IMG/VR virus record: IMGVR_UViG_3300029305_006219
Direction: 5' to 3' (one strand)
Length of the DNA stretch: 64,000 bases
Source: a virus
Program-made: the position numbers and the translations under genes
Notes under the pieces: model-generated
Databases searched by the model: none
Told to the model about the DNA's origin: nothing
The model's input: only the letters and a program-made list of their open reading frames with translations
Part shown: piece after piece, positions 13,112 through 64,000 of the stretch
Layout: each line of letters opens with the position of its first letter
How positions within the stretch are numbered: the stretch's first letter is position 1

Positions 13112-13160
13112 TTCTCCTTTCGCATACTTTTATATATAATAATTATAACTTATTTTTTAC
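13112..13160 (-). promoter_or_regulatory. Sigma-A-type promoter, one copy of a repeated intergenic module
   Basis: On the minus strand: TTGATT-17 nt-TATAAT, followed by an RBS. Confidence 0.5.
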
Positions 13161-13162
13161 AA

Positions 13163-13190
13163 AAAATCAAGCCGTATCACCTGATACGGC
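13163..13190 (-). terminator. Rho-independent terminator
   Basis: Hairpin AAGCCGTATCA..TGATACGGCTT followed by a T-run on the minus strand. Confidence 0.55.
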
Positions 13191-13195
13191 TTTTA

Positions 13196-13441
13196 TCATT
13201 TTAAACCAAGCATACGACATATATCTAAATAACTTTCACTTACCTCATAGGGCTCATTATCAGAATCAGCATTTATCCAAATTTCAGTGCCAGTTAGAAT
13301 TTCACGACTTGGCCCAAATTGTTCGATATATGCCGTATTTAGCATTATTTTATTTTGAGAATGAAAAAGAGTTACTTCAATAAACATATTATTTTTCCCT
13401 CCAAATATGAATTGGTAAATTGTTTTCACAAGGAAAGACAT
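13196..13441 (-). CDS. Hypothetical protein
   Basis: 81-aa ORF with a TGA stop. Confidence 0.35.
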   Translation of the reverse strand: MSFLVKTIYQFIFGGKNNMFIEVTLFHSQNKIMLNTAYIEQFGPSREILTGTEIWINADSDNEPYEVSESYLDICRMLGLK

Positions 13442-13625
13442 TAATCATCTTATGATCTTGACTGTAAGAACAATAAACATCAAAACCTCGTTTCTTCATT
13501 TGTCTTTCGATAATCTCTTCTTTAAGTAAGCCAATATGTGCATAGTTCTTAGCTCGCTGTTCTGCGATACATTTATCAAGATACTTAAAAGTTTCTTTTA
13601 TTGCTTGTTCATATTTTTCTGTCAT
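13389..13625 (-). CDS. Hypothetical protein
   Basis: 78-aa ORF. Confidence 0.35.
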   Translation of the reverse strand: MTEKYEQAIKETFKYLDKCIAEQRAKNYAHIGLLKEEIIERQMKKRGFDVYCSYSQDHKMINVFPCENNLPIHIWREK

Positions 13626-13944
13626 TTATTTTCCATGCTCCTATTTCAAAGTTATTTAGATCTATTAGCGGCGGATCGCCAATGAAAGCGATTTTTATTG
13701 GCTTTTGAAGTTCGCTTACGCCAAGTATCCAAAGAGAATTGGGATCTAGCCTCTCTGGGTCGTAGTATACTTCTACAGGTATCTGTTTTTCTTTTATTTT
13801 TTGTCTGAATAAAAGATACAATTCTTCAAAAGATAGCTCTCTTACATCAGTCGTTGCTTTTATGTTCTCAATTAGATCGTGTAATTCTGCTTCTATATAT
13901 GGTTTCATTGCTACCTCATTTCCGTTGATAATATTCTTCTTCAT
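13609..13944 (-). CDS. Hypothetical protein
   Basis: 111-aa ORF. Confidence 0.35.
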   Translation of the reverse strand: MKKNIINGNEVAMKPYIEAELHDLIENIKATTDVRELSFEELYLLFRQKIKEKQIPVEVYYDPERLDPNSLWILGVSELQKPIKIAFIGDPPLIDLNNFEIGAWKINDRKI

Positions 13945-14887
13945 TTTCTTTTGTTAATAGAAATCTTGAAGTTTCTAATTTTAAATCGTTTAGGTCATAC
14001 TCTTGATCATATGGGATACGAATTAATGGAATATTATGTTCAAAACAATATTTATTTTTAAGTAAATCGTTGTTGCGAGTTTCTTCAAAATGCTCTTTTG
14101 TATTCCAAGTATTTATAGTATCTTTGCGATATGAAAAATGTTGTTGTCCATCAAATTCAATAATATAAGAGTCTTCTATATAAAAATCAAATCTAGCCTT
14201 TGCACCAGAGGCTAACAAACAGTCTTTAAAACTCTTTTGGTTTGTAAAGCTAATATCGGCTTCTTGTAACATTTGTGTAATTTTTGTTTCATTATAGGAT
14301 GCGCCTAAACAGCCGCAACTTTTTGTTTGCCCCACAGTTAAATAGCCAGAAGGAACTTCCGTATAGTTACCGCAATCACATAAGCATTTCCAAATTACAT
14401 AAGATCCAATCCTTTTTTCAGTTGGTTCTAAAGCAGTTAATAAGCCAAATTTTTGATTACTTAAATCAATAAAATGCCTAGGTTTACAAAATCCACAGCT
14501 TTTGGTGTCGCCAGCCGTAAGACTTGAGCCCATTACTATATGCGCCCTTCCACAAGAACATTTGCAATTCCAAAAGGCATGGCCACCTTCTGTTTTGGCT
14601 AAACTTAAAACTGTAAGTTCTCCAAAAGTTTGTCCTGTTAAATCTCGAACTGGTCTTCCGCCACTTTTATTTTCGTGTTTAAGACAGCCACAAGATTTAG
14701 TATGATCTGATGTTAAATGGTTTTTAGACACCACTAATAAAGTCTTTGCTTCACATTGACATTCGCAGAGCCAAAAGACACCTTTTCTCCCTGTTGGATG
14801 CTCTACTCTATATAGCGCTTTTAAACGATTAAACTATTTACCAGAAATATTTTCAGCTTGCCCTATTGGAATTTGTTTGTACTCCAT
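13916..14887 (-). CDS. Zinc-ribbon-repeat protein with C-terminal PD-(D/E)xK/Vsr-like nuclease domain, 1 in-frame TAG
   Basis: Starts MEYKQIPIGQAENISGK[TAG]FNRL... (TAG at 14834-36) and continues in frame into ORF 13916..14734. Repeated W.C.C.CG...TKSCGC motifs; C-terminal YIIEFDGQQHF resembles Vsr/DUF559-type nucleases. Confidence 0.5.
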
Positions 14888-14891
14888 TTTT

Positions 14892-16931: not shown

Positions 16932-17429
16932 TTACTCTTCCTCCAATTTTTTACCCATTCTCAACTTCATCAGTCTTCCGCAGAATTCCGATTGAGTCAA
17001 TACTGTTCTGCTCTCATCATTTTTACCTATTGAGTGCGTTAAGATAGCGGGTTTAGATGCTTCAAGAGCTCGCCTAAATCCTTCGTTCTGGTATAGAGCG
17101 TTGTAAACTCTGTTTAGAAGAATCTGGTATTCCTCGCTATCTCTCTTGTATTCTACTCCCTGCCAGTAGAGAGTCTGATCTCTCCACCACTTCTTATCTT
17201 TACCCTTAAACTTTGCGGCCTTGCCTACCAGGGTGCAGACATGGCGCTGCATATCGGGTGATTTAAATTTTAATGACTGCAAGAACCCCTCCATTGATGC
17301 ACATTCGACGCCGTCTATTACGAATGGGTGCGGCGCAAAGTTGCTCAATGTGCAAGATGGGTATGCAGACCCGCTTCCTATATCCATTTTATTTTCCTCT
17401 TTTCTTATTCTTATAATATATTTTAACAT
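16932..17429 (-). CDS. NADAR (YbiA/DUF1768) family protein
   Basis: SNFAPHPF..DG...SMEGFLQSLKF and GKAAKFKG resemble NADAR motifs. Confidence 0.5.
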   Translation of the reverse strand: MLKYIIRIRKEENKMDIGSGSAYPSCTLSNFAPHPFVIDGVECASMEGFLQSLKFKSPDMQRHVCTLVGKAAKFKGKDKKWWRDQTLYWQGVEYKRDSEEYQILLNRVYNALYQNEGFRRALEASKPAILTHSIGKNDESRTVLTQSEFCGRLMKLRMGKKLEEE

Positions 17430-17458
17430 AATTTTTATTAAAAATCAAAAGAGGATGA

Positions 17459-17683
17459 TTAATTATCCTCTGATGTCATTGTTGTTAGATAATATAATAA
17501 TGTTGTTTTCCTTCCGCATTTAGGACATTGCCAAATTTCTTCACCATATGCTAAAGAGTCTTTTCTCAGAGAAGTGTGCTGACAATTTTGAACCTTCTCT
17601 TGAATACACTTCATTCTAATTCTACATTTACAACAGTTAATTCCTGTAGTGCGAGGTAATTTTGTGCGTTTTAAATATTTCAT
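17459..17683 (-). CDS. Hypothetical Zn-ribbon protein
   Basis: 74-aa ORF. Confidence 0.3.
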   Translation of the reverse strand: MKYLKRTKLPRTTGINCCKCRIRMKCIQEKVQNCQHTSLRKDSLAYGEEIWQCPKCGRKTTLLYYLTTMTSEDN

Positions 17684-19801: not shown

Positions 19802-20554
19802 TCATCCTTTCTTTAAATAATTTTCTACATCTTCAATAAACAACCAATGATAACCATAGCCTTTAGTTTCACCTTTATTACGACAACTTCTACGAATGTG
19901 AGAACCATCTGTTTTTCCTAGTGCTCGAGCAGCGGTTTGACTTGATGAATACTCTTGTTTGGTTTCTATGCAATATACTGGTTTACTATTGGTTTTAACT
20001 GAATTTATTCGCATTTTATCTAATTTAATTTTTTCTTCTTCTTTATGACTATCCCAGTATACACGAGATGCCATTCTTCCTTTTAAGGTATTATTTTTTC
20101 GTTCTTCAAAAGAAGAATTTTCTATATATTTTACATTAATTTCCTTTAAAAATACTTTCTTTTCTTCTTTTTTATCTTCTGGTAAATTTTGCCAAGTATT
20201 TTTAGAAGCAATACCAATTTTCTTTTTAGTTTCTTCTGTGTGCAAATGTCCAAGCTGACCTCCTTTTGTTAAATTATATCCAAAATCAGGATTGTCACTT
20301 TTATAAAATTGGATATAAAATTTTTCCCAATAATCAGCTTCATTTTGACTTAGCAAGTTTTGTTTTAAAATTATATGCTCAAAATTATCCCATCCATATT
20401 TTTCAATGGCAGAATAAAAAAGAGGGCTTTTAATATATTGCTTTCCATTAGCTCTCCATCTCTACTTTATATTACAGCTTTGTCCTATATATCTTTTCTA
20501 ATTTTGCTTATTAACATGAGCATAGATACACCATTTTTTAATATTTTCATTCAT
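19802..20554 (-). CDS. GIY-YIG homing endonuclease (HE3), 2 in-frame TAG
   Basis: MNENIKKWCIYAHVNKQN[TAG]KRYIGQSCNIK[TAG]RWRANG...YGWDNFEHIIL then ORF 19802..20356, ending in a C-terminal CRNKGETKGYGYHWLF repeat. Note the genomically encoded Q in YIGQS. TAGs at 20498-500 and 20462-64. AAAGGAGG RBS. Confidence 0.8.
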
Positions 20555-25125: not shown

Positions 25126-25223
25126 TTATCTTTTTACCTCTTTTTATACTTTTATATATATATATTATAACATAAATTAAATAAAAAGTCAATAGAGGAT
25201 AATATCCTCTATTGACTTAATCA

Positions 25224-25700
25224 TTATTGAGCTGTATTTATCAAATCTTTAAGTTCCGTCACAATAAGGTCAAGCGCTTCTGTCTGTTCGCGAGAGCACT
25301 GAGAAACTTTTTGTCCTTTACCAAGATATTTCTCTATGCATTGACTAATACGAGGTTGCCAATAAGTTTTGAATGTTTCTTCGTCGCTTTGAACCGAGAG
25401 GTCTTGAATCATTGAGTTAAACTGCATCATAAGTTCATCGAAATCAAGTTCTTTTGAAACGAATGTATGCAAGTTGGCGCCAGTATCTGTGAAGTATTGA
25501 GTTCCATCCTCAGCCGCCTGTCTATCAATAGCATCTCCTATTGCATTAACAAGAGCATTATAGTTGAAGTCAATATAATCAGGCGTATACTTAAATCTAC
25601 TTCCAGCTACGAAACGAGGAGTTCCGCGCATAAAGAGTTTTGTAGATTTCTCACCAGACTCAGACTCAACAGTTCTCGCATATCCTATTATGTCCTTTAA
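25224..25700 (-). CDS. AAA_24/Sak4-like ATPase, 3' exon (C-terminal part)
   Basis: ORF 25224..25715 continues the ATPase sequence interrupted by the group I intron. The exact 3' splice site is not resolved. Confidence 0.45.
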   Translation of the reverse strand, partial: LKDIIGYARTVESESGEKSTKLFMRGTPRFVAGSRFKYTPDYIDFNYNALVNAIGDAIDRQAAEDGTQYFTDTGANLHTFVSKELDFDELMMQFNSMIQDLSVQSDEETFKTYWQPRISQCIEKYLGKGQKVSQCSREQTEALDLIVTELKDLINTAQ

Positions 25701-26690
25701 TACCCTCTTTTTCAAGATATTTTAATGGGAATAGACTATATCTTCATCCATTTTAAACGGTGGATGTCATGCACTTCGATTTAAAGGATTTTCACCTACT
25801 TTTATATTATTATAAAAGCCCTACTCCTGTTGAGGAAATTTCATCCTCCAGTGGGATAGTCGTTGAACCTTCTCCTATTCGGAGCTTGGCTGCTGATTGC
25901 CCAATTTAATCAATTTTTAACATTCGCACTTAGATTTCTTTCATTCTTATGCTGTAGTTTGATTAACTCTAAGGGGTTTCCAGCAATTCACATGATTTGC
26001 TTAATGGATTGCTCCATTAAGGGCCTTATATATTTCATATTTTCGTCTCAACCGAGAGGCCTCGGTTGAATGTTCATAAATTTTATTTAAAATTTGTACA
26101 ACTGCAGCGCCTTCTTTATGAATTTGATAAGCAGAGGTTCCACAAGGACTTACTTTATTATCAAACTCTAAAATTTCTAGCATTTGTTTTGTGCAGATCT
26201 CAGTTTGACTGACAAAACTTAAACTAGGAATATTGTTTCTATCTTCTCTAATGTGAATACTACCATCTGCATCTAGCAATCCTCTTGCAAAATCATAAAT
26301 ATATTCATTAGGAATGTTTTCAAGGGGAATACTAAAAATAGAGGTTTTTGCAGGTACTATATTATATTGTGCTAAATAACGTTTTAACTCTGCCGAGTTT
26401 ATAGATACAGTTAAAGCATGACATCCAGTGTTATTAGTACGCTCTGTAATGGGCGCATTAGATTCAAAGAATGCTTGTAAATTTTCAAGCTGCTCTCTAT
26501 CTATATCTTTTAACTCAACTCTTACTCTGGCTTCATTTTTAGCTACATTTCCATCTCCAGCTAAAAATCCAAGCCAATAATATTTTTCATGAGGGTCTAT
26601 TTTAATGTTTGTTAAATTTAAAGGATATTTTCTCAAAAAACTTTCAACTCCTTCTTTAAGAGAGCGAAAATATGAAATAAAAATGTTAAG
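25700..26690 (-). mobile_element. Group I intron interrupting the AAA_24 ATPase gene and carrying a LAGLIDADG endonuclease ORF
   Basis: Minus-strand core elements: P-like AATTGCTGG (about 25950), Q-like AATCAGCAGCC (about 25890), R GTTCAACGACTA (25849-25860), S AAGATATAGTCT (25726-25737). Upstream exon ORF ends at a TAA at 26686. Boundaries are approximate. Confidence 0.6.
26001..26636 (-). CDS. Double-motif LAGLIDADG homing endonuclease (intron-encoded)
   Basis: LGFLAGDGNV and ARGLLDADGSI motifs. TTG start with an AAGGAG RBS. Confidence 0.75.
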   Translation of the reverse strand: MRKYPLNLTNIKIDPHEKYYWLGFLAGDGNVAKNEARVRVELKDIDREQLENLQAFFESNAPITERTNNTGCHALTVSINSAELKRYLAQYNIVPAKTSIFSIPLENIPNEYIYDFARGLLDADGSIHIREDRNNIPSLSFVSQTEICTKQMLEILEFDNKVSPCGTSAYQIHKEGAAVVQILNKIYEHSTEASRLRRKYEIYKALNGAIH

Positions 26691-27252
26691 CCATACGGTT
26701 TACAATATTACGAGGTTTATTATCAAGAGTAGGAACAATCTGATTATACTCATTGCCATTTTGATCCTTAAAGGTTTTGTCTTGCGCGTGAGAAATAATT
26801 ACTAAGCCGTATCCTAATTGAAGGATTGAACGAAGCGCGCTATCAAACTCTTGCGCTGCCATTTTGAAGCCCTTTCCGTAACCAATGTCACCGATGCTAT
26901 CGACGCCTATAGAGCCATCTGGACGAACTGCATTGGCGCAAATATATTTCTCACAATAGTCATAGGCTATATCAGCTGTATCAAGGATAATAGTTTCGAA
27001 TCTAGCTTTAACCTGTTCATTCTTTAACTGGCGCAAGAATTTTTTAAACTCAGACCAACTATTAATAGGTTGTGCCATGGCGCCGGGAATTGCATTATAT
27101 CCTTTTTCAAAAGCCGCCAAAAGATGATTAGGGAATTTAGTCGCGGTAGTAGTTTTACCGGTCTTTGCGTCTCCATAGAAGAAGACGCAATAACCGCGCA
27201 TATCTCTTGAAACCTAATGAGGCTAAATATCAAGTAAATTAAAATCTGCCAT
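26690..27252 (-). CDS. AAA_24/Sak4-like ATPase, 5' exon, 2 in-frame TAG
   Basis: MADFNLLDI[TAG]PH[TAG]VSRDMRGYCVFFYGDAKTGKTT (Walker A) ...ISHAQDK. TAGs at 27223-25 and 27214-16. RBS AAAAGAGG. Confidence 0.6.
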
Positions 27253-28237: not shown

Positions 28238-28471
28238 TTCTTTCTCCTTGTTTATTAATTATTTTACTTATTTAATATTTTTGTCCAATATCTTTATTAT
28301 AACAAAAATTTTTTATTTAGTCAAGTAGAAGCTGCATTATATCATTAACTACTTCATAAGTCATACGAGAGCTTCCATCTTCATTATAGCAAGTTATTCC
28401 TCTTGTTTTAAGATACTCCTCTAAAACAGGAAAAGGTATATAAGAAATTGCTAAAATTATAAAATCTCTCA

Positions 28472-28855: not shown

Positions 28856-28937
28856 TTAATTAATTTATCTCCATTTCTATTTATTTTATTCATTTTATAT
28901 AATAATTATAATTAAATTTGTATAAAAAATCAATAAA

Positions 28938-44150: not shown

Positions 44151-44155
44151 ATTTT

Positions 44156-44368: not shown

Positions 44369-44372
44369 TTAA

Positions 44373-45160: not shown

Positions 45161-45184
45161 TTTTATTCCCTTCTTTTCATTTCT

Positions 45185-45262
45185 TTCTTATTTTATAATT
45201 TATTATAACATATTTTTTTAATAAAATCAAAAAAGCCGCTAAAAAGCGGCTTTTGTTGTTTT
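45185..45262 (-). promoter_or_regulatory. Intergenic terminator plus sigma-A promoter module (repeated family)
   Basis: Minus strand: hairpin AAAAGCCGCTTTTTAGCGGCTTTT, then TTGATT-17 nt-TGTTATAAT. Confidence 0.5.
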
Positions 45263-46062: not shown

Positions 46063-46143
46063 ATTTTATAGTAGTTAGCGGCAAGCTATTTATCTATAAA
46101 AATATGAAAATAAAGGAGATTATTTTAATTTATTTTGACCTTT

Positions 46144-48531: not shown

Positions 48532-48572
48532 ATTATTATAACATAATTTTTTGAAAAAGTCAATCGATTCCT

Positions 48573-50384: not shown

Positions 50385-50455
50385 CTTTTATAATTTATTA
50401 TAACATATTTTTTTAATAAAATCAAAAGGCACTCATAAGAGTGCCTTTAAGTTGT
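50385..50455 (-). promoter_or_regulatory. Intergenic terminator plus sigma-A promoter module (repeated family)
   Basis: Minus strand: hairpin AAAGGCACTCTTATGAGTGCCTTT, then TTGATT-17 nt-TGTTATAAT. Confidence 0.5.
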
Positions 50456-51639: not shown

Positions 51640-54477
51640 TCACGAGTTATAATCGTTGTTTGCTATTATCATATCAGTTAGTTTTACAAAACCCTGAGAC
51701 ATTGAGTTGATGTCGACGTAAAACTGATTATCATAATAATTTGTATCGATAACCTGATTATATTCATCAACATAAAATCCGCTTGTGTTATATGGAGTGT
51801 TAATCCACTCTTGCCAAGTCATACCTTCTAAGGCGGTGTATGATGCTCCGTTAACGGTAAAGGTAATTATAGGCAATGTTCTTGTAAGAGTATATGTGTG
51901 ATTTGCTACGATTGTATCACTTGTTTTAACATATTTATATATGATGTTACCATCCTCATCTTCGTCTTCTCTCAAACATATAAGATTTCCCGTCATGTCC
52001 TCACAAACATATCCAGGTATCAATGGATCACTCCAATAATTTTCAGAAGGAACATAGTAACTGCCGTCGCTGGCGTTCATAAAATCAGCCCAAGTCATAC
52101 CCTCGGTGACTGTATATGATTCATCTCCTGCATCGTTACCGTCAATATAGAATGTTATTGTGCTAGGTGTTGGCTCTTCTTCGTTTTCAAAATTAAAGTA
52201 AATATCTATTTGAGTATCTGTTGAAGTCGTATAATCAATTGTAAGGTTATTGTTTTCAATATCGATAGAGTTAATATTTGAAGTTAAATTATCAATACCA
52301 TTTAAGGTTATTAATTCATTGTTCTACGAACCCATATTTATTGTTTTAGTATTTTCAGTTGCAAGAAGCTCTATTGATATTGGGCTTGTTATTTCTACTT
52401 CAATCCCTACAGCATCGATATAATAGTTACATCTTCCTATAATAATATCCAAATCACGACAATGTCTACCGCTACCATCATTAAGCCATACTGCGCCGAT
52501 ATATCCATCTCCATCTTCATCGATAATAGATTCTGCTACACAGTTTTCTTCTCCGTTAACAGTAAGAGAGTTCCAAATAACAAAATCCTTTGTATTATAC
52601 GCGCTATCGCACCATTCATACCACGTCATACCAGGCTCAGCCATGTATGTTATTCCTTCAATAGTGAAAGTGATTTCAAGTGTAATATATGAATCATCTA
52701 TATAATATACACCATTTTCTGTAATTGTATCATTATAAGATACCATCATCTTGATATCATCGCTATTGTAGTATACTGCGCCGATATATCCATCTCCATC
52801 TTCATCAGTTGCAGATGTTGCTATTAAGTCTTGATTATATGAGCTATTATAAGGAACAAAACCTGCTTTATTATATGAGCTATTACACCAATCGCTCCAA
52901 ATCATATTCCTATTAGATGTGTATTCTGTTCCATTAATAGTAAATGTTATTGTACTTGTTTCGTTTTCAAAACTAAAGTAAGCATCTATTTGAGTGTCGG
53001 TTGAAGTTGCATAATTAATTGTAAGTTCATTATTTTCATTAATATTAATAGAGTTGATATTTGAAGTTAAATTGTCAATACCATTTAATGTTAATCTATT
53101 CTATGAATCTATATTTACTGTTTTAGTATTTTCAGCGGCAAGAAGCTCTATTCTCATTGGACTTGTTGTTCCTGCTGGTATGTCTCCAATTGTGTATGTA
53201 TAATTTGCCATAATAAGACTACTTGGGAAAACTGGCTTACTACCATCATTGCAATATACCGCTACTTGTGATCCCTCTTCTACCACAAAACCATCTTGAA
53301 TAATATAGTATGTACCATATTCACTATTCACCCAGTCTTGCCAAGTCATACCTTCTTCAAATCTATAGAACTCGTCTCCCGTTAGATTATCTTCGATATA
53401 AAATATTGAGGTTGAAATAGGTAATGAATCTGAAACTATATATGAATGATTTATTCTAATAACATCACTGGGTTTAACAGCAGTGTACTCATTTAAAAGC
53501 ACATATCGACCTGTAGAATTTTCTATTATATAATCATTTTGAACTACATATTCTGCATCATCATTACTTGAAATACTATCAATCCATTCTTGCCAAGTCA
53601 TACCACTCTCGGCGAAATATGATTCTTTTTGCATATCATTTCCTTCAATATAAAATGTTATCATACCTACAATATAATCTCTATAAACACTCCAATTTGT
53701 TGCTGCTTTCCAATCATCAACAAGTTCATAGGGAACTCTAATTTTACAATTTGAAGGAATGTTTAAAAAAGCACTTGTATTAGCAAGAGTTGGTATACTT
53801 GTATGAAAAGAAAAATCGTAATATTGCATTGAAGTACAGTTGGCAAATGCGCTTGATCTAATAGTTGTAACGCCATTAGGAAAATTCATTTGTGTAAGAG
53901 CCTTACACCCATAAAAAGCTTGCTCTCCAATTGCTGTAATATTACTAGGTAGAGTTATGCCTGAAAGAACTTTACAACCGCTAAACATGCGATATCCAAT
54001 CCAGGAAATATTACTGGGTAAAGATATATCTATAAGAGATGTACAATTATAAAATGCTTCATCTCCTATTTTTGTAATACTATCGGGTAGACTTAAACTC
54101 TTAAGCTTAGCACAATTAGTAAAAACACCTACTCCAAGTTGTGTAATAGTGTTAGGAATAATTATATTTGCATTTGACTCAAGTCCATGACAATTTGAAA
54201 AAGCATAATCACCAATATAAGTAATATTATTTGGTATATTTATTTTTGTAAGATATGTGCAGCCCTCAAAAGCAGCTCGTCCTATTTTTGTTATATTAGC
54301 TAAATCCTGTGTAGTTATTTCAGTAATTGTTCTATCAATTATTTTAGCTAGTTTACTTTGTTCTTCTGTATCTGCATTTAAAGCCGTTACAATAATATCA
54401 CGATCGCAATATTTACCTGCTGTTTTTAAACGAATGGAAGATCCGCTTGTTACATTTATATTATGTTCAGCCATCAT
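51640..54477 (-). CDS. BspA-type leucine-rich-repeat tail fiber/receptor-binding protein with C-terminal tandem repeats, 2 in-frame TAG
   Basis: ORFs 53101..54477, 52324..52905 and 51640..52098 are one frame joined by TAG 53101-03 and TAG 52324-26. LRR_5 repeats (NITYIGDYAFSNC...). Repeated (R/S)IELLA(A/T)ENTKT(V/I)N(I/M)(D/G)S and GMTWQEW blocks. Confidence 0.6.
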
Positions 54478-54794: not shown

Positions 54795-54956
54795 AGCATT
54801 TTCTCCTTTAATTTATCTTTTCAAAATTTGGAGAATAAGTTTACCATCATTCCAGATAAACTTCTTTCTTCATTTTATATATAAAAATTAAAGAAGATAA
54901 AGTAATTTACTTTGACCTGTTTTTATAATTATAATAAAATTTTATATAAAAGTCAA

Positions 54957-54990
54957 ATAAAGCCATCGGCGCGAACCGATGGCTTTAGAT
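54957..54990 (-). terminator. Rho-independent terminator
   Basis: Hairpin AAAGCCATCGG CGCGAA CCGATGGCTTT followed by a T-run on the minus strand. Confidence 0.55.
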
Positions 54991-54999: not shown

Positions 55000-57480
55000 T
55001 TATTCTTTTGAAGCCTCTACAATATTTTTCATTGTTTTCTCAAGGCTGGTTCCACGAAGCAGAGTGTTCCATGTCTCAGCGAGAGATTCACCCTTAGCCA
55101 TAGCGGCAGGCGCGAGGTTTTTGCCAAGTCCATTCATAATCTCTGCATTTGCCTGAGACTCAAGTGCTGCTACAAGATCAGGGCTAATTGCCGCAAATAT
55201 CTTAGCAACGTTGTCTGCATATGCCTTCTGTTTTGCTTCTTCTATTGCAGCAAGCTGCTTCTCAGTTGCGATCTTGGCATCATCTGCCGCCTTATCACGA
55301 GCAAGCTGTGCTTTCTGAATTGCATCGAAGATAGGCTGCATATCAGACTTGGCAGTAGCTTCAGCTGTTGCCTCAGCACGCTTCATAGCGGCGATCTCCG
55401 CCTGATTCTTTAGCTTTTCTTCTTCAGCCTTCTGGTTAAGCTCAAGCGCATACATCTTATTCTGGTGATTAAGTTCTGCCTCTTCACGATCGAATTTAGC
55501 AATCTGCTTAACCATTTCAGATTTACGAGTAGCATCAGAGAGTTCAAGAGTTTTCTGAATCATTTCCTTCTGGTGTGCTTCCATCATCTTAGCGACTTGC
55601 GCCTCAACCTGAACATTGAGAACTTCAACATCAGTTACAAGCATACCATTTTCTTTAAAGAGTCTTCCGTTATGAGGCGCCTGATCAGTTTCTGCTTTAG
55701 CTACATTGCCAAGCGCAGTGTTTCTGATGATGTCTGCCGCTTTTGCGTAGAACTCTTCAATATTATACTTCTTAGCTTCGCGCTTAAGGAGACTGCGCAT
55801 TCTGTCACACATATGTTTTACATAGTTATCTACAGAGAACCACTTATCCTTATATTCGGGAAGGAAGTTTACATTATAGGAGAGAAGGAACTTAACATCA
55901 ACAAAGTCCTTTGTCTGAACACTGATGATATCAGATACCTTATTATTGTCAATACGGAGATATGCAGTCTGAATCAGATTGTCTGTTGTCTTAGGCTTAC
56001 CTGTTGAAAGATTTACAATTTCAAGAGTCTCATCATACTCAAGGAGTCGAGTAGCAGGACCAATGATTGTCTCTCTCTTACCAGACTTGGATACAACATT
56101 TACTGCATAGCCAGTCCATACATTGATAGCAACAACTCCATCATACTTTGTATCAAGCACAATAGTACGAGGCTTTGTATAAGATACACCGCGCGAAATA
56201 TTAGCGGTTGCCGCAAAAATCGCAAGAGCATCATTTTGATTTGCAGTGCTATATGCATTATTAATTATGTCTGTCTTGTTAGACTTACCATTGCGCGCAT
56301 CGCGCTCAGCCTTTGCTTCAGAAAGACCGAGGTTATATTCAAGCGCCTCACGGTTGCCAGGATAGAAAGTTTCGCACTCCTTAACAGAAAGTACTCTCTT
56401 AACAACTACCTCAAAACGAGGATCAGGAAGATACATAGCGGGACCCTTGACCATCTTAACAGTTCCCTTAATTCTATCAAGGATATAGCGTCCTTCGCCC
56501 TCAGGAATTGCTATTGCATGATGCATATACTTACCGTCATACTGAATAAGTGCGTGCTCAGGGCGAGGATAGTAAATCATCTGATTATTACCTGTAATAA
56601 AGAGTTCTTCGCCAACAGGATGCTTAACTCCATTCTCTGTATATTCTGCGATAACCTTTACATAAATACCGCTAATAGGCGAAAGTTCAAGTGCGCGGAA
56701 TATTACGCCCTTCTGAGGGGTCTGTACGAAGGTCTGTGTAGGTGTAGGGAATACAACCTTGGGTCCATGAGCATAGACCTTTTCACCGTTTTCATCTTTA
56801 AGGATACAATACTCAAGGCGCTCAAGGGTGACTGCATCGCGCACATACTCAGAAGAGTTATCTTCACAAGCGAGAACTTCAATACCCGTAGGAGGAATAT
56901 AGAAAGATACTTCAGTACCCTTGATTACAAGTTGCTGACCTGTAAAGTAGGTCTCTTTCTTAACGATCTCTTTACCTTCTGCATCGAGAATAGTTGCGGA
57001 AGCAGCGTTCTTGGCGGCTGCCACTGCGTCATAAACGCGAGCAATGAGGTACTGGTTAGAACGAAGCTTATGTCCTCGAATAACTTTTGCCATCTGACCA
57101 GGGAATAGCGCAAAGGAAGCAGGTCCAGAAATATTAACCTTAATACCAATTTTCATATTATCGGGAGTAACATTCGACTTACCTGCAAGAGGGTATACAC
57201 CATCTGCCGTAGGGTTCTTGAGAATCACATACCAACCCTCGGGCGCCGATACAAATAGCTGTTTTGCTCGCTCGAAGTCTTTTACTTCATCGAATTTCTT
57301 TGTCTTATTGTTGAAAATAACACAAGTCTGCTGCTGAGAAATAGTTACCATAGCAGGTCCTGCATAGGTTCTAATCTCACCGTTAGTGCAGTCCTGAATC
57401 TGGACGTATTCATTGACTGCAAGTACAAGGTCGCGTGTGCGACCTCTATTGTCATTTGCATTGTAATTAAAATCATTCAT
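55000..57480 (-). CDS. Large flotillin/MVP-like SPFH-domain coiled-coil protein (function unknown, possibly structural)
   Basis: 826 aa. C-terminal Ala/Glu/Lys-rich coiled coil typical of the flotillin/YqiK C-terminus. No TAG. Confidence 0.35.
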   Translation of the reverse strand: MNDFNYNANDNRGRTRDLVLAVNEYVQIQDCTNGEIRTYAGPAMVTISQQQTCVIFNNKTKKFDEVKDFERAKQLFVSAPEGWYVILKNPTADGVYPLAGKSNVTPDNMKIGIKVNISGPASFALFPGQMAKVIRGHKLRSNQYLIARVYDAVAAAKNAASATILDAEGKEIVKKETYFTGQQLVIKGTEVSFYIPPTGIEVLACEDNSSEYVRDAVTLERLEYCILKDENGEKVYAHGPKVVFPTPTQTFVQTPQKGVIFRALELSPISGIYVKVIAEYTENGVKHPVGEELFITGNNQMIYYPRPEHALIQYDGKYMHHAIAIPEGEGRYILDRIKGTVKMVKGPAMYLPDPRFEVVVKRVLSVKECETFYPGNREALEYNLGLSEAKAERDARNGKSNKTDIINNAYSTANQNDALAIFAATANISRGVSYTKPRTIVLDTKYDGVVAINVWTGYAVNVVSKSGKRETIIGPATRLLEYDETLEIVNLSTGKPKTTDNLIQTAYLRIDNNKVSDIISVQTKDFVDVKFLLSYNVNFLPEYKDKWFSVDNYVKHMCDRMRSLLKREAKKYNIEEFYAKAADIIRNTALGNVAKAETDQAPHNGRLFKENGMLVTDVEVLNVQVEAQVAKMMEAHQKEMIQKTLELSDATRKSEMVKQIAKFDREEAELNHQNKMYALELNQKAEEEKLKNQAEIAAMKRAEATAEATAKSDMQPIFDAIQKAQLARDKAADDAKIATEKQLAAIEEAKQKAYADNVAKIFAAISPDLVAALESQANAEIMNGLGKNLAPAAMAKGESLAETWNTLLRGTSLEKTMKNIVEASKE

Positions 57481-57561
57481 TCTTTTTTATTTCCTTTCTT
57501 TCTTATCATTTATTACATATATATTATATCATTTTTTTTATTAAAAATCAATTAAAATTCC

Positions 57562-58703: not shown

Positions 58704-58795
58704 TTTTCTTTTCCTCTCTTTTTTCCCTTTTTTATTTTATAATTTATTATATCATAAATTTTTAAAAAAATAAAAGCAGATTATATGATCTGCTT

Positions 58796-59221
58796 TTATT
58801 CTACTTCGTGTTTATAATTAAGTGTTTTGAATTGGCGGCGATCGATGCATTTAAGCTTCTCGCTTTCATTGATATTTTCTAGCAACAACTCACAATTAGC
58901 GCCAGTTGCACTAAGATTACGTATAGACTCCATCATTTCTGATAAAGAAACACCGTATGATTTTGCTGCTGTTGCTATTTTCTGCAGAGCATTGCTCATA
59001 CTACTCTGTGCTGTTTGTAATTGTTCTTCTTTAGTACCCATTCTCACTTCTAACTCCTTCCATTGATGTACACCATCTCCTATTTTTACTGTGACGATTC
59101 CTTGATCAGAATCAATTGCGCAACCCACTTCGCCTTTCATTAATATTGGATTATTTTCATTCCAAGCCTATGGAGTATCATTTTTCATAATAAGGCGCGT
59201 ACTTAGATTATAAGTTGCCAT
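58796..59221 (-). CDS. Tail-fiber N-terminal-domain-like protein, 1 in-frame TAG
   Basis: MATYNLSTRLIMKNDTP[TAG]AWNENNPILMKGEVGCAIDSDQGIVTVKIGDGVHQWKEL continues into ORF 58796..59140. TAG at 59168-70. RBS AAAGGAG. Confidence 0.5.
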
Positions 59222-59588
59222 TTTCTATCTCCTTTGCTATCTCAATATAAGTTCCTTTTACACCTTGACTTTTGACCTGCGCAATACCAAATTTTTCCAT
59301 TTTTTGCAATAGTGAAGTCCATACAGGGCGCGAAAGGCTTGTTTTTTGAATCATCTTTACAATTGAGATATTACCAGATAAACCAATTGTTTCTCTAATT
59401 GATTGAAAAGCCAATTTTTCATTATCTGTTAATGATTTGTAAAAATCTTCTACTAAAATTAGCTGATCAGCGCCAATGACCGCTTCTAAGAAATCCATTA
59501 GGCGCCCAAGATCTCCATCAAGTCTAAATTCACGAATATCTGCTTCATATTCTTTAGCTATTGCTAATAATTTATCATAAGTAATCAT
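59208..59588 (-). CDS. Hypothetical protein
   Basis: 126-aa ORF. Confidence 0.3.
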   Translation of the reverse strand: MITYDKLLAIAKEYEADIREFRLDGDLGRLMDFLEAVIGADQLILVEDFYKSLTDNEKLAFQSIRETIGLSGNISIVKMIQKTSLSRPVWTSLLQKMEKFGIAQVKSQGVKGTYIEIAKEIENGNL

Positions 59589-59748
59589 ATTTTTATTTTC
59601 CTCTACATATTCTTTTAATAAATTATAATATAAATTTTACAGTTTTTCAACGAAAAAATCTAAAACCACTTTTAGATTCTATAAGTCGACCCTCTGCGTT
59701 CCGAACAGATATATAAAATAAAAAGCCACCTTCATAGGTGACTCTGGT

Positions 59749-59988: not shown

Positions 59989-59989
59989 A

Positions 59990-61100
59990 GAGGGCGCTTA
60001 AGATTGTCAATTGAATTTCCTGTGGAGTAGTTAATTGTATCCACACTTTTCCCAACCCTACCAAGTACTATCTCTTGCGAGACCGTGCAAACGGCTTCTT
60101 TTGACAGAGCGCTGTGTTTGGGGCAGAGGCTCTCTTAAGCATTATTATAGATTAACTTGATATTTGCGCAGTGATCACCTGATTCCTGCTCCTATTGATC
60201 TTTTCCGAAGGTGCGACCTTCGCACAGTTCTGCATATCAAGTGAAAATGGGAAGAAACGAAGACCTTTCCCGTAGTCCTCGTTTAGCGACACTAACGGAT
60301 TTCCAAGGGCGGAATGTGTCAGTTACCCGAGCTTATGACCCAGCCACAGAGGTTTGTCAGAGTATGCTCTCCGCAACACTTTTGCATCTTCAAATGTCGA
60401 CGACTTACAGGCGTGCGCCGCCTTGTCTCAGAAAGGAGGTGAGACTATAATTGAAGAAATTAGTCGCTTTTAAGGCTCACAGCGTCGCCACGAGAAGGCT
60501 TTCTTCTTGACGCCATATGGAGCACCTGATTGGATTTGGACCAATGTGGACAGAGTCTCGCGCTTACAAGGCGCGTGCAATCGACCGCTATGCGACAGGT
60601 GCATATATTAAAGAGGTGACAGCTTTAGGTCAGCCAACCGCTCATTGTTTTCTTTTGGGCGTGGTATTTGCTTACCATCCTCAATTCGAGTAAATAACCG
60701 TTTCATCTTTCAATCTACATCTGGCTTAGACATTTTTAATTGGTCTACCAGAACCTCGCCACATCCTCGGCGCCAATCGCACCCTACTTATTTCACCGTA
60801 GCTACTCTTCGGGTGGACGAAATCCACGATTTTCTCGGCATTTGATTTCAGTTTATTTTCGTGGGCGCTCTCTCAAGCCTACTCTGGATTATCCAGCAGT
60901 ATTCGCCTCAAAATACTCAATGAAATCAAGGTTATTCACTTATAGATAAACTTTTCATCAATATTAAGGATATTATAACACTGGCATTTATCAATCCCTG
61001 TTATAAAAACCCTGACACTTTTGTGCTCGTGCTGCGAGGTCAGCTCGTGGTTAGCACTCTTATAATCCTGAATGCTCCAGAAGTCATCTACATTTGCTCA
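59990..61100. ncRNA. GC-rich non-coding block between tRNAs; candidate large structured RNA (GOLLD/ROOL-like?)
   Basis: About 1.1 kb with no ORF over 80 aa in any frame even with TAG treated as sense. GC content is clearly above the flanking genes, and there are many local hairpins. No family could be assigned from sequence alone. Confidence 0.25.
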
Positions 61101-61512: not shown

Positions 61513-62163
61513 TTAATCAGCCTACCATTTCCAAATGAAACCATAAGCAGATTTTCTAATTCCATTTGCACACTCTCGAATGTGCGTTGAAATACCTTTT
61601 ACTTTCACTGAAGATGTTAAATTATTATCTATTAAATACTGAGAAGCATCTGTTAAAGAAGAAAAACTTTGAATATATTCATTAGTTTTTTTATCAAACA
61701 TTTTTACAGCTTTGCTAAACAACTCTTTATTAATTGTTTGAGCAGTTTTTAATACGCCTCCTCGTTGATGAATAACAATATATACGCTATCTACTGAAAT
61801 ATTTAATTTTTTTGCCACTTCTGTTGCATTTTGCAAAACTTCATAAGTGGAATAGATTAAATCATAATCTAAATAACGTTTTCCATCTCCTCCTAAAGTA
61901 GCATTATAACCATTTTTAAATGATTGTTTTTTCTCAATCCAAAAGATTTCTCTTTCAGAAGGATTATCTGTTTCTTCAAGCAATTCTATATGAAAATGTT
62001 CAATTCCATATTTGTTTATTGCTCGATATAAAGGACGATCCTTGCATCTTTCCTTTTGATAATCACTACAATGCTCTTTCCAACGTTTTTCTATAGACTT
62101 TTCTGTTTTACCAATGTATATTTTACCATTTATATCATTGGTAATTTGATAAATGTATGCCAT
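61513..62163 (-). CDS. GIY-YIG homing endonuclease (HE6) in the tRNA cluster, 1 in-frame TAG near the C-terminus
   Basis: MAYIYQITNDINGKIYIGKT...R..H...NGYNATLGGDG...; C-terminal CANGIRKSAYGFIWKW[TAG]AI then TAA. RBS AAAGGAG. Confidence 0.75.
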
Positions 62164-62244
62164 ATTTAAATAGCTCCTTTTTATACTTATTATCAACTTT
62201 TAGCTTAACCCATCGCACACCACGTGGAGGTAGTTGATTAAGTG

Positions 62245-62316
62245 CGACCTGGGGTGGCTGGATTTGAACCAGCGGGTGTCAGAGTCAAAGTCTGATGCCT
62301 TGCCACTTGGCTACAC
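62245..62316 (-). tRNA. tRNA-Gln (UUG)
   Basis: UGGGGUG...anticodon loop CUUUGAC...GCUGGUUCAAAUCCAGC CACCCCA G. U1-A72 and G73. CCA is not encoded. Confidence 0.8.
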
Positions 62317-62561
62317 CCCAATAATATCTTAATTACATTAACTAATAGGAGTGATTTGCACTATTCCAAAGGCGATTACTCAACCTTCCTCCTTTAATCT
62401 TGTACAAGATTTGTGAACAACCTAAGTTACCGTTTCACTACGGAGTTAATGTTATTACGATTAGCGACCCCTTTCGGGCAATTTTGAATCGAGAATTTGT
62501 TGATGGAAACTCAGGTCAGGAGTTTATATTGCATCGCTTTATTTCTTACATATATATTATA

Positions 62562-63003
62562 TCATAAATTTTTTAGAAAATCAATTAATCGATAATTTTC
62601 TACCAAATTTATCCCTTTAGTTTGATTATTTTTTGGAGGATCTTGTCTAAAAGTAATTACTTTTTTAGTACCAATTTCTTCAATTGGCAGAATAAGAATT
62701 TCATTCCATTCTACGATATAAAAACAAAAATAATCTATGTCATTCTCGTAAGTGCTATAATGTTTATTGGTAGTATGGTTTGTACTGCTTGCACAAGGAC
62801 AGGCAATAGAATTATTTTCAGTAATTTGTTGATTACAATACTTTACTTGAATACGATTTAATTTTCCATTAAACTCTGCTATCAAATCATAACGAGCATT
62901 ATCTCCAAAAGGGATTGCTACCTAAATGTTATTTTTAACAAATTCAGCAAGTACAACTGCCTCACCAATATTGCCTTTATCTTTACTATTCATATTACTC
63001 CTT
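62562..63003 (-). CDS. PD-(D/E)xK (Hjc/endonuclease-like) nuclease, 1 in-frame TAG
   Basis: MNSKDKGNIGEAVVLAEFVKNNI[TAG]VAIPFGDNARYDLIAEFNGKLNRIQVKY continues into ORF 62562..62885. TAG at 62932-34. RBS AGAAGGAG. It is immediately adjacent to the interrupted tRNA-Lys. Confidence 0.45.
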
Positions 63004-63007
63004 CTTA

Positions 63008-63161
63008 TGGTGAGCCAAGCGAGATTCGAACTCGCGACCCCGTGATTAATGGTGCTTGAGGTTAGATTCGAACTAACAACCTAAAGCCGACTAAGCCCCA
63101 GACTTTACCAATTAAACATACTCAAACAAGTCACGTGCTCTTCCATCTGAGCTACTGGCTC
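63008..63161 (-). tRNA. tRNA-Lys (UUU) interrupted by a 78-nt insertion in the anticodon loop
   Basis: Exon parts GAGCCAG UA GCUC AGAUGGAA GAGC A CGUGA CUU | 78-nt insert | UUAA UCACG GGGUC GCGAGUUCGAAUCUCGC UUGGCUC A CCA. After removal of the insert the sequence closely resembles E. coli tRNA-Lys and the loop reads CUUUUAA. Confidence 0.6.
63050..63127 (-). other. tRNA-like insertion element (acceptor/T-arm minihelix with encoded CCA) inside the tRNA-Lys anticodon loop
   Basis: GUUUGAG...GUUAG UUCGAAU CUAAC CUCAAGC A CCA. The 7-bp acceptor pairing and T-arm are perfect. No canonical anticodon arm could be folded. Confidence 0.45.
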
Positions 63162-63169
63162 ATATAATT

Positions 63170-64000
63170 ATTTACTTAGTTAGCTTTTTGAATAGCTCTA
63201 TATTTTCGCTTGAGTTTATTGATTATATTTCCATTAGCGGCATCGCGCTAAAGAATACTAATACGATTAAGTATTGCAAGTTCTCTATTTATCATTTTGC
63301 TTTATTTCCTTTCTTATCTTTATTACATAAATATTATATCATATTTTTTAATAAAAATCAATGAAAACCTTTGGAGTTTGCTTTTGCCTAATGGTGGTTA
63401 GGACAAAAGCTCTCTGCAACTCATTTTTCTTTGCTACGAGTAAACACAATAGATTGATAGGTTTTTACTAAGCTACCTTCAAACTTAATGGTGGAGAATA
63501 TGAGTAACGATCTCATCTGAACTTCTGCTTGCAAAGCAGACGACCACTCCATGCAGTCCCATTCCCCATAGGAAAGAGAGGGAGAGTTTTTATATCCAAC
63601 AAGAGAATCACTCTCCAAACTCTGATGTTTTACGAGGCGCCGAGTAATGCTTGTTGGCAGCATCAAGGCGTTGATTTAAAATGGCAGAAAATGTCGGTGC
63701 TGCCCCGCTACTCCGCATCCCAAATGCGGTGTGTTACTGTTACACTACATTCTCTATATTCCAGCTTTTAGATGCGGGAAGCTGGGCCCGCGCCTTTCAT
63801 AGCCTTGTTGGATAAACCTGCGCTATTACTAAGCTATCTTTATAAATCTCGCACTTCATCTTGGAGGCGAAACTCCAGCGGATGTTTGGCCCACCGCTGC
63901 CTTTCGGATATAAGTCTCACCGAGTATAACCAGCACTGTTTATATAGCGTCTGCCGCCTCGCTCTCTACTCTCTCTGTTGATTAGGTGAGAGGAATATCC
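63170..64000. ncRNA. GC-rich non-coding block at the window end; candidate structured RNA
   Basis: No convincing ORF, high GC relative to the phage genes, and contiguous with the tRNA cluster. ORFs 63421..63666 and 63529..63981 look spurious. Confidence 0.2.

Follow-up and report, generated by a model that had tools for sequence, protein, structure and literature searches.

Why does one phage place almost the same promoter in front of so many of its genes, often directly behind a hairpin, and which sigma factor reads it? The window analysed here is a 64-kb stretch of DNA from an uncultivated phage, in which an initial annotation had described at least 12 intergenic modules of a terminator hairpin followed by a near-consensus sigma-A promoter. 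The pattern TTGATT-N16-18-TATAAT has nine exact matches in the window where 0.21 would be expected, and every one of them is on the minus strand. A PWM iterated from the seed TTGA..N17TA.AAT, with a cut-off of at least 18 bits, finds 21 sites of 18-36 bits on the minus (coding) strand and none on the plus strand of the window, and shuffled sequences give a mean of 0.01. The motif is confirmed as real, far beyond chance. The figure of at least 12 sites is borne out, but seven of the 21 (59622, 41248, 32934, 28296, 17420, 2486 and 726) had been missed, and three of these (59622, 17420 and 726) have adjacent hairpins. Thirteen of the 14 examples originally listed contain a bona fide promoter; the remaining pair, 62530-62561, is offset and overlaps only the -10 of the promoter at 62556-62584.

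The consensus of the 21 sites is TTGAyTTTTtwtwAAAAwTTATGwTATAAT. The -35 hexamer is TTGAYT; a 17-bp spacer of A and T only, the Gram-positive '-16' motif TRTG and a perfect TATAAT as -10 come after it, with an AT-only discriminator of ~10 nt directly 3' of the -10. TRTG occupies -17 to -14 (T18 in 20/21 sites, A19 in 17/21, T20 in 17/21 and G21 in 13/21). The passage of PMC6570832 that cites Voskuil & Chambliss gives T-R-T-G at these positions, directly 5' of TATAAT, as the consensus of the Bacillus '-16 region'. The window sites resemble the sigma-A '-16 region' promoters of Bacillus subtilis in this respect, but the host promoters of B. subtilis are as a class much less uniform. The 21 sites have ~30 bits in common, spacer and discriminator positions included. 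The information content is restricted to about -4 to +45, counted from the first T of the -35, and the bases upstream are not conserved. The description of near-identical promoter cores behind different hairpins is correct. The literal 29-mer quoted for the core is exact at 35243-35271 but occurs only once, and four sites match it with at most three mismatches.

Sequence shared to this extent could also belong to a mobile or recombinogenic repeat unrelated to gene starts, either MITE/REP-like or a recently duplicated promoter cassette. The copies at 45202 and 50397 are identical over ~40 nt, and the motif regions make up the largest repeat families (50-94 nt) found by an independent repeat finder. 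However, the similarity extends no further than the hairpin at one end and is gradually lost in a purine-rich 5'UTR at the other, and the copies have no terminal inverted repeats and no target duplications. Every one of the 21 is oriented with the coding strand and keeps a fixed spacing to the start codon or tRNA downstream, and orthologous promoter positions are kept in relatives with sigma protein identities of no more than 46-68%. Limited similarity, a single strand, a fixed distance to gene starts and orthologous positions effectively refute a mobile repeat, which we regard as extremely improbable. Both the conservation profile and the repeat finder indicate that the shared sequence is not part of a longer mobile element, and the assignment as strand-specific sigma-A-type promoters with an extended -10, 20-75 nt 5' of gene starts, stands. 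A ribosome-binding site had been proposed after each promoter; a purine-rich Shine-Dalgarno sequence and a start codon do follow ~20-135 nt downstream of 17/21 sites, but three sites precede tRNA genes.

The association with terminators is looser. A strong hairpin (dG -10 to -20) ends -3 to +6 nt from the -35 at 11-12 of the 21 sites; for comparison, a hairpin of this kind occurs anywhere within 60 nt in 11.5% of random windows. Nearly all the strong terminator-like hairpins of the window adjoin a promoter. Where a hairpin abuts the -35, TTGATTTTTT doubles as the predicted terminator U-tract. Nine of the 14 listed examples are full modules, all on the minus strand, while four are promoters only and one is the offset pair. 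The hairpin overlaps the -35 in the modules at 13142-13192 (hairpin 13169-13192, dG -14.5; promoter 13142-13170), 25164-25218 (hairpin 25186-25218, dG -13 to -20 depending on the stem limits chosen; promoter 25164-25192) and 42698-42753 (hairpin 42724-42753, dG -16.0; promoter 42698-42726). At 50397-50448 the overlap is 1 nt (hairpin 50425-50448, dG -15.4; promoter 50397-50425). At 45202-45254 the gap is 0 nt (hairpin 45231-45254, dG -14.2; promoter 45202-45230), and at 54928-54987 a 13-bp stem (54958-54987, dG -19.7) stands 1 nt from the promoter at 54928-54956. The gap is 2 nt at 35243-35298, upstream of the gene for NAD-dependent DNA ligase (hairpin 35274-35298, dG -13.4; promoter 35243-35271), and 6 nt at 40457-40516, upstream of gyrB (hairpin 40492-40516, dG -13.7; promoter 40457-40485). 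The module at 58746-58797 has TTTATT as its -35 (hairpin 58772-58797, dG -10.2; promoter 58746-58774).

The unlisted units with hairpins are also on the minus strand. The module at 726-781 (hairpin 755-781, dG -16.7; promoter 726-754, gap 0 nt) is the last transcription unit ahead of the convergent late-gene array. At 17420-17475 the hairpin is weaker (17446-17475, dG -8.6) and the promoter, 17420-17448, has TAAAAT as its -10. The unit at 59622-59688 combines a promoter without TG (59622-59650, 26 bits) with a borderline AU-rich hairpin (59648-59688, dG -10.0), and a start codon lies 33 nt downstream.

Nine of the 21 minus-strand promoters have no adjoining terminator. The hairpin is absent or weak at 62556-62584 (33.5 bits), upstream of tRNA-Gln at 62248-62321; at 57523-57551 (29.8 bits), where the gene 42 nt downstream encodes an 826-aa MVP-shoulder-domain protein; at 28905-28933 (28.9 bits, no TG); and at 48535-48563, the top-scoring site (35.7 bits), directly 5' of the phage sigma gene. 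The promoter at 63333-63361 (TTGATTTTTATTAAAAAATATGATATAAT, 34 bits) has a short ORF and a tRNA region downstream; a hairpin at 63374-63414, 12 nt upstream, lacks a T-run and was not scored as a terminator. The remaining sites are 28296-28324 (30.3 bits), 2486-2514 (25.8 bits), 32934-32962 (27 bits) and 41248-41276. The -35 at 32934 lies within the last codons of ORF 32949-33200, and the gene that follows (83 aa, start 32867) contains one in-frame TAG. The promoter at 41248 is the weakest (19 bits, no TG, no T-tract) and has an amber-suppressor tRNA(CUA) downstream at 41063-41137.

The same promoter is found in related phage contigs of 90-200 kb. Matches to the hexamers only, in 52 related loci (573 kb), number 215 co-directional vs 11 antisense, and the 145 sites in relatives that lie outside the selection made by the search pattern have the same spacer and discriminator profile. 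In these relatives, T content at +4 to +9 is 4.6 of 6 with an abutting hairpin vs 3.1 of 6 without (p = 5e-4), and a terminator adjoins only 21% of the 215 sites. Many promoters do lie directly behind hairpins, but the pairing is not obligatory and to speak of a module as the general unit exaggerates the coupling. In the nearest relative, no such promoter occurs in 12.3 kb of the convergent, TAG-rich (late) array. An association of the promoter with TAG-free genes is a trend only (p = 0.08, motif-retrieved loci excluded).

The sequence features make it very likely that these are strong promoters of the sigma-A/sigma-70 class used by host RNA polymerase, about half of them with a rho-independent terminator. 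The host holoenzyme would transcribe from them the co-directional early/middle region, with its replication, nucleotide-metabolism, tRNA and sigma genes. The phage itself is TAG-recoded and would be large (about 120-180 kb), with anaerobic gut Bacillota as hosts. About half of the promoters would lie directly 3' of a terminator that borrows TTGATTTTTT from the promoter as its 3' U-tract. Because the U-tract is shared, one intergenic spacer of 50-80 bp could close one unit and open the next, and the gene array would be divided into ~20 insulated units of 1-8 genes each. The sites would initiate and terminate transcription with host sigma-A as their first user: transcription would start ~7 nt after TATAAT, and transcripts would end at the hairpin/TTGATTTT junctions. 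The low-GC Gram-positive host originally proposed is plausible. In its favour are TRTG at -16, ribosome-binding sites of the AGGAG type and an anaerobic NrdD, together with relatives that were binned in MAGs from rabbit and rumen carrying the labels Bacilli, Clostridium and Erysipelotrichaceae, although some of these bins are plainly wrong.

Other large phages that infect Gram-positive bacteria are known to be organised in this way, and the finding is real and largely ordinary. The Herelleviridae (Staphylococcus phage K, Bacillus phage SPO1) are likewise large lytic phages of low-GC hosts with many co-directional early genes, and they share the TTGACA-like -35, the 17-bp spacing and TATG-n-TATAAT (TRTG plus extended -10). 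The early and middle units of phage K start from sigma-A-like promoters with an extended -10, and frequent intrinsic terminators delimit them, while the late promoters differ and, as here, this class of promoter is missing from late genes (PMC11598898). The differences lie in the details. The spacers examined in phage K and SPO1 contain G/C and have no T-tract/A-tract pattern, and the -35 of the present phage is mostly TTGAYT, doubling as terminator U-tract. TAG is a sense codon in this phage, and its proteins have <40% identity to proteins of cultured phages, which also sets it apart from the Herelleviridae. The early promoters of coliphages T4 and T5 (Liebig & Rueger 1989; Gentz & Bujard 1985) are reportedly recognised by the host primary sigma, with a consensus said to continue well past both hexamers, into the spacer, which is AT-rich, and into the initially transcribed sequence. 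They differ from the present promoters in having a Gram-negative host, no TRTG and other conserved spacer bases, and they are not known to be joined to an upstream terminator in any systematic way. Their extended consensus has been explained by selection for promoters strong enough to outcompete those of the host.

The phage also encodes a sigma factor of its own (47596-48492, minus strand), SigA/RpoD-like, with regions 1.2-4.2 and without region 1.1. Its start codon is probably the ATG at 48492, placed there by promoter geometry and the alignment with the related locus L001; the alternative longest-ORF ATG, 48531, is only 4 nt past the -10 of promoter 48535. It had been presumed to serve a different promoter class, a proposal that its sequence does not support: it aligns to residues 100-389 of C. 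difficile SigA (E = 5e-83) and retains most residues that read the -10, TG and -35, including Q437, R441, H455, E458, E585, R588 and Q589 (E. coli numbering). The same -35/TG/-10 specificity is predicted from these residues, and the phage sigma would probably read the same promoters later in infection. The sigmas of SPO1, gp28 and gp33/34, are by comparison highly divergent. Huge phages encode sigma-70/RpoD homologues (Al-Shayeb et al. 2020; PMC7162821), similarly host-like primary-type sigmas that could replace the host sigma; that report ties no promoter set to the sigma, and here a candidate cognate promoter family can be defined.

The phage-encoded sigma could even be the principal user. 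The T/A-tract spacer and the AT-only discriminator exceed what sigma-A is known to need and are absent in the promoters of phage K and SPO1 that were compared, so there may be an additional reader of these promoters. The 45-bp element could then be the cognate promoter of the phage sigma, its clade-specific spacer and discriminator favouring a sigma that lacks region 1.1 and carries W433Y, with host sigma-A using it poorly or only priming it. The phage sigma would in this way take over core RNA polymerase in a self-amplifying manner. Binding to the class is expected from the retained determinants. W433Y is common to all five phage sigmas compared, and R584K is shared by the sigmas of the window and L001, together with promoters that favour TTGAYT rather than TTGACA. 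The window and the related loci L001-L004 each combine the sigma gene with the spacer signature, and a huge phage with its own sigma-70 that also targets the host's provides a precedent (PMC7162821). However, the elements are near-perfect sigma-A consensus, and no residue change falls on a known spacer contact. The sigma gene stands behind the best-scoring copy, so host sigma-A must fire the class first unless the sigma is packaged in the virion; in L001 and L004 the sigma genes are also preceded by orthologous promoters. We judge this possible but unlikely, and continue to favour the host holoenzyme as the main user.

The spacer permits one further reading. Across the clade, 62-84% of sites have A at +12 to +15, and +5 to +9 are T-rich, both above intergenic background, and this quasi-palindromic T5-6/A5-6 spacer might serve as the operator of a DNA-binding protein from the phage or the host. 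The binder, or free sigma lacking region 1.1, would toggle the whole promoter set and provide temporal control. This is improbable in our estimation, less so than a mobile repeat and more so than a phage-sigma promoter. The two halves are not perfectly symmetrical, the centre of symmetry differs between copies, terminator overlap accounts for part of the T-tract, and AT-rich spacers may merely raise promoter strength. No candidate regulator has been identified. Among the gene products encoded close by are several small HTH-like proteins, such as those of the 83-aa ORF starting at 32867 and of 59208-59588, the latter with a weak CodY-type HTH match below the Pfam cutoff.

A repeated promoter element had been proposed in the initial annotation for the intergenic regions of the window, and its presence is confirmed. 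The pattern TTGATT-N16-18-TATAAT matches nine times in the window, always on the minus strand, where dinucleotide shuffles give an expectation of 0.21. An iterated weight matrix, seeded with TTGA..N17TA.AAT and used with a cut-off of 18 bits, finds 21 minus-strand sites scoring 19-36 bits (named here by their lower coordinate), no plus-strand site of 18 bits or more in the window, and a mean of 0.01 matches in locally shuffled sequence. Two weak extra matches, at 15136 (intragenic) and 7170, are excluded from the 21. The consensus of the sites, TTGAyTTTTtwtwAAAAwTTATGwTATAAT, is clear, although the 29-mer quoted in the annotation occurs as an exact copy only once (35243-35271). The same intergenic regions make up the largest direct-repeat families returned by an independent repeat finder. 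A mobile intergenic repeat of the MITE/REP type could also give rise to such families, and would be recognized by terminal inverted repeats, copies in both orientations, no relation to gene starts and similarity running past the regulatory core. None of these features was found among the copies. They have one orientation and a fixed place ahead of starts, and their similarity covers only about 45 nt plus a low-complexity 5'UTR; on these grounds a mobile repeat is rejected.

The anatomy of the element is highly uniform. TTGA forms the -35 core in 20 of the 21 sites, followed by T (11), C (8) or A (2) at position 5 and by T (16) or A (5) at position 6. The -10 hexamer is TATAAT in 20 sites and TAAAAT in one, and the -35/-10 spacing is exactly 17 bp in all 21. 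Counting from the first T of the -35, positions +18 to +21 read T-A-T-G (T18 in 20/21, A19 in 17/21, T20 in 17/21, G21 in 13/21), which places TRTG at -17 to -14. This is the Bacillus subtilis '-16 region' consensus, as given in PMC6570832, which cites Voskuil & Chambliss. The spacer is nearly without G or C, being T-rich at +5 to +9 and carrying A at +12 to +15 in 17-21 of the 21 sites. Scored against the intergenic background, information content climbs at -4, is high across the -35, the full 17-bp spacer and the -10, and remains above background for about 10-15 nt past the -10, where an AT-only stretch, wwATTATAAr or ATATATGTAA, lies 3' of TATAAT. Upstream of -4 relative to the -35 the information in the 21 sites is approximately zero, with no UP element or conserved upstream A-tracts.

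The coding strand carries all 21 sites. The leader behind them is purine-rich and contains an AGGAG-type Shine-Dalgarno sequence, with the start codon 21-133 nt past the -10; at three promoters (63333, 62556 and 41248) tRNA genes are found downstream instead. Long 'non-coding' gaps appeared to follow 32934, 54928 and 726; these vanish once TAG is taken as a sense codon, and with TAG read in this way a gene or tRNA lies downstream of every promoter. Judged by sequence and placement, the 21 sites have the -35, the -10 at 17 +/- 1 bp, the TRTG and the co-oriented upstream position of a Gram-positive sigma-A (sigma-70 housekeeping) promoter.

The terminator half of the module is less regular. At eleven promoters a hairpin (dG -10 to -20 kcal/mol) adjoins the -35, its end falling anywhere from 3 nt within the hexamer to 6 nt ahead of it, and one further hairpin (dG -8.6) adjoins 17420. 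Among 200 random windows, only 11.5% had any hairpin this strong (dG of -10 or lower) within 60 nt, and nearly all of the strong terminator-like hairpins on the coding strand adjoin a promoter. A GC-containing stem-loop followed by a T/U-run past a stop codon is present at only 11-12 of the 21 promoters, and a credible terminator is absent at nine (63333, 62556, 57523, 48535, 41248, 32934, 28905, 28296 and 2486). Of the 14 example regions in the annotation, nine are complete modules, four contain only the promoter and one is offset (62530-62561, against the promoter at 62556-62584); its statement that the hairpins differ is borne out, as their sequences are mutually unrelated. The hairpin tails have 5-8 T per 10 nt in 10 of 12 modules (40457 has 5, 59622 only 2). 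In 10 of 12 modules the T-run after the stem is (T)TTGAyTTTT, that is, the -35 hexamer together with the T-tract of the spacer. The exceptions to this sharing are 59622, with its 2 T in 10 nt, and 40457, which has its own T-run 6 nt upstream. Predicted transcript 3' ends would fall in TTGAUUUU after the hairpins, and the intrinsic terminators would insulate successive transcription units. A separate strong hairpin at 161-190 (13-bp stem, dG -16.2) lies where the minus-strand array runs out and the genes converge. On the minus strand no clear T-run follows it; it may be a bidirectional terminator.

The overlap of U-tract and -35 was followed in relatives of the virus, using only those sites that had not been pre-selected by a search pattern. 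Among these, T at +4 to +9 averages 4.6/6 when a strong hairpin abuts the promoter and 3.1/6 when it does not (p = 5e-4), and hairpin-abutted sites are also richer in A at +12 to +16 (p = 0.002). TTGATT is the dominant -35 with a hairpin, whereas TTGACw dominates without one. Because hairpin-abutted sites carry more T and more TTGATT, the comparison supports a dual use in which the -35 and early spacer are shaped partly by their role as a terminator U-tract. Even hairpin-less sites have a T-tract above background, and dual use is therefore not the whole explanation. Across the clade the coupling is looser, with an abutting strong hairpin at only 21% of 215 sites.

These relatives were reached in two ways. 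A search with the sigma protein of the window retrieved four low-GC viral loci whose sigmas are 46-68% identical to it, three on contigs of 123-181 kb and one (L003) on a 24-kb contig. The same promoter type is present on the coding strand in all four, and in two of them, L001 and L004, one copy immediately precedes the sigma gene. A degenerate 29-nt DNA pattern alone retrieved at least 120 stretches, mostly from viral contigs of 90-200 kb. Homologues of window proteins are encoded in 73 of 127 loci, often in synteny. In 52 homologue-bearing loci (573 kb), matches to the hexamers only are co-directional with genes in 215 cases and antisense in 11. The 145 sites that fall outside the retrieval pattern are T-rich at +5 to +9, have A at +12 to +15 in 62-84%, T18 in 89%, A19 in 60%, T20 in 88% and G21 in 67%, and are followed by the downstream block AtAtATAnAA. 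Since these pattern-independent sites show the same profile, the extended consensus is conserved across a deep clade and does not come from recent duplication.

A megablast of 15.6 kb of the window against cultured phages gave no match. Experiments on Staphylococcus phage K have shown sigma-A-like promoters, frequently with an extended -10, at its early and middle units, which are delimited by terminators; its late promoters do not conform (PMC11598898). The unit organization predicted for the window mirrors this arrangement. TRTG is common to the promoters of phage K and the window. However, the phage K spacers are heterogeneous and contain G/C without T/A tracts (13 sites), and the SPO1 early promoters likewise have TRTG and no T/A tracts (2-3 sites only), both being small samples. 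Three features are specific to the present case: the clade-wide T/A-tract spacer with its AT discriminator, the fusion of U-tract and -35, and a SigA-like phage sigma perhaps able to share or take over these promoters.

The genes of the window are all on the minus strand and encode GyrB/GyrA, an NAD-dependent ligase, DnaB, primase, RecJ, Pol III alpha, an anaerobic NrdD with an intein, RNA ligase/PNK/phosphoesterase, a sigma factor and about ten tRNAs. In several places what seems a non-coding gap is in fact coding sequence broken by in-frame TAG, and coding density rises from 0.854 to 0.902 once TAG is sense. The anaerobic ribonucleotide reductase NrdD (3184-6321 (-)), with an Intein_splicing match and two in-frame TAG, is 1045 aa long with TAG read through. 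Similarly, a BspA-like LRR protein at 51640-54477 (-) reaches 945 aa and has internal direct repeats of about 780 nt with 82-86% identity (families D10, D11 and D13). Free-standing ORFs resembling GIY-YIG/NUMOD-type homing endonucleases (6322-6914, 11979-12848, 19802-20554 and 30470-31417, all (-)) looked like non-coding gaps under the standard code because an in-frame TAG breaks each of them. A suppressor tRNA with anticodon CUA is encoded at 41063-41137 (-), behind the weakest promoter copy (41248-41276). Given this tRNA, the gain in density and the residues that relatives have at TAG positions, where Gln is commonest (45 against 22 for the next residue), TAG is read as a sense codon in the window, most likely for Gln. 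This recoding fits known TAG-recoded gut phages, and the ~154-kb 'Agate' clade from cattle (bioRxiv 10.1101/2021.08.26.457843) is a candidate home for the phage.

Gene orientation flips just past position 1 of the window, and the genes beyond it run toward those of the window. The array on that side in the closest relative (L134:1-12351 (+), on the contig of L001; also L133:3607-7654 (-)) is made up of large genes, every one with 10-23 in-frame TAG, and is presumably the late/structural module. No promoter match above 15 bits is found in its 12.3 kb. By eye, several of its intergenic regions have terminators and then a T-run with TATATAA/TATAAAT-like boxes and no -35, which can serve only as a lead. 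Over all loci, genes whose upstream gap measures 60 nt or more have a promoter match ahead of them in 26% of TAG-free and 8% of TAG-rich cases (p = 7e-5); the values are 18% and 6% (p = 0.08) in the loci that were not retrieved by the motif. A search for a second promoter class, for the phage sigma, by 7-mer enrichment in relatives' upstream regions (91 non-redundant TAG-rich against 498 TAG-free) gave nothing past multiple testing, with a best p of 0.003.

The phage sigma ORF (47596-48531 (-)) contains Pfam regions 1.2, 2, 3 and 4 (r1_2, r2, r3, r4) and aligns over its full length to C. difficile SigA, residues 100-389 (E = 5e-83). ATG 48531 is only 4 nt past a -10 and ATG 48492 matches the L001 start in the alignment; the latter is probably the true start. 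Region 1.1 is absent, with only ~25-36 residues ahead of region 1.2. The best models are those of RpoD: the two leading NCBIfam ones score 334 (cut-off 555) and 332 (cut-off 572) bits, and RpoD_Cterm scores 302 (cut-off 354). The missing region 1.1 and the sub-cut-off scores mark the protein, by its sequence, as RpoD-like and not a bona fide primary sigma. The residues Y425, Y430, W434, Q437 and R441 (E. coli numbering), which recognize the -10, are kept, as are H455 and E458, which recognize TG, and E585, R588 and Q589, which recognize the -35. The changes are W433Y (all five phage sigmas), T440S and R584K (window and L001 only).

From these retained residues the phage sigma should read the same promoter class as the 21 sites. 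The initial reading is therefore only partly supported: its sigma-A-type promoters and terminators stand, but the different promoter class proposed for the phage sigma is contradicted by the predicted -10, TG and -35 contacts. The best-scoring promoter copy precedes the sigma gene itself. Because the gene lies behind this promoter, the class must be usable by host sigma-A, the alternative being that virions carry the sigma with them. It is conceivable, though rather unlikely, that the clade-specific 45-bp promoter (TTGAYT, T/A-tract spacer, TRTG-TATAAT, AT-only discriminator) co-evolved with the phage's SigA-like sigma, truncated by the loss of region 1.1 and carrying W433Y. In that case either the phage sigma would use these promoters preferentially and so capture host core polymerase autocatalytically, or binding by the free protein, suggested by the lack of the auto-inhibitory region 1.1, would silence early transcription at the onset of the TAG-recoded late programme.

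The best-supported reading is an ordinary but very clean case of strong host-type sigma-A promoters driving the early/middle region of a large lytic phage, and current understanding is not overturned. Indirect evidence makes a low-GC anaerobe a plausible host. Relatives of the Pol III protein occur in MAGs from rabbit and rumen with the labels Bacilli, Clostridium and Erysipelotrichaceae, some of the bins being plainly wrong. The clade's phage contigs, up to 139 kb long (L179-L192), are also part of MAGs that bear the labels uncultured Bacilli (rabbit 'Lapin' bins), Clostridium, Erysipelotrichaceae, Methanobrevibacter and Endomicrobiaceae, of which the latter two at least are very likely binning artefacts. 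For the large TAG-recoded gut/rumen phages of this uncultivated clade, the result provides a predicted transcription map with ~20 units in 64 kb. It also provides a compact DNA signature, as the 29-nt pattern could find and orient clade members and more than half of the stretches it retrieved encode window-protein homologues. The U-tract/-35 fusion is a neat regulatory compaction and a possible synthetic insulator-promoter part for low-GC Gram-positive bacteria. Three observations bear on the question of how these phages may time the switch from standard to alternative code: the tendency of the promoters to precede TAG-free genes, a suppressor tRNA behind the weakest copy and a SigA-like sigma.

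Several other features of the window were observed. Immediately 3' of tRNA-Gln lies an HDV-like ribozyme match at 62181-62248 (-) (HDV-F-prausnitzii, E = 2e-4) that scores 37 bits where the gathering threshold is 44, and a weaker CPEB3-like match at 60452-60526 (-) adjoins tRNA-Thr. They resemble the 'theta ribozymes' that adjoin viral tRNAs in gut phages (PMC10879173), although the matches in the window are sub-threshold. No theta/HDV-like ribozyme was detected beside the suppressor tRNA. An Rfam tRNA match at 63011-63161 (-) spans 150 nt at the gathering threshold, while a local search covers only 63053-63127 and ARAGORN makes no call; it could be a tRNA with an intron or one that is atypical in another way. 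What looks like a tRNA-repair set (43602-47580 (-)) follows immediately after the sigma gene and comprises an RNA ligase, a polynucleotide-kinase-like protein and a phosphoesterase. A group I intron (25713-26068 (-), Rfam 78 bits), overlapped by a LAGLIDADG endonuclease ORF (26001-26636), sits between an AAA_24 (Sak4-like) ORF at 26686-27252 and the ORF at 25224-25631, and these two ORFs are therefore probably one intron-split gene. An 826-aa protein (55000-57480 (-)) has major-vault-protein shoulder (PF11978, 6e-26) and repeat (PF17795) domains, which seems unusual for a phage protein.
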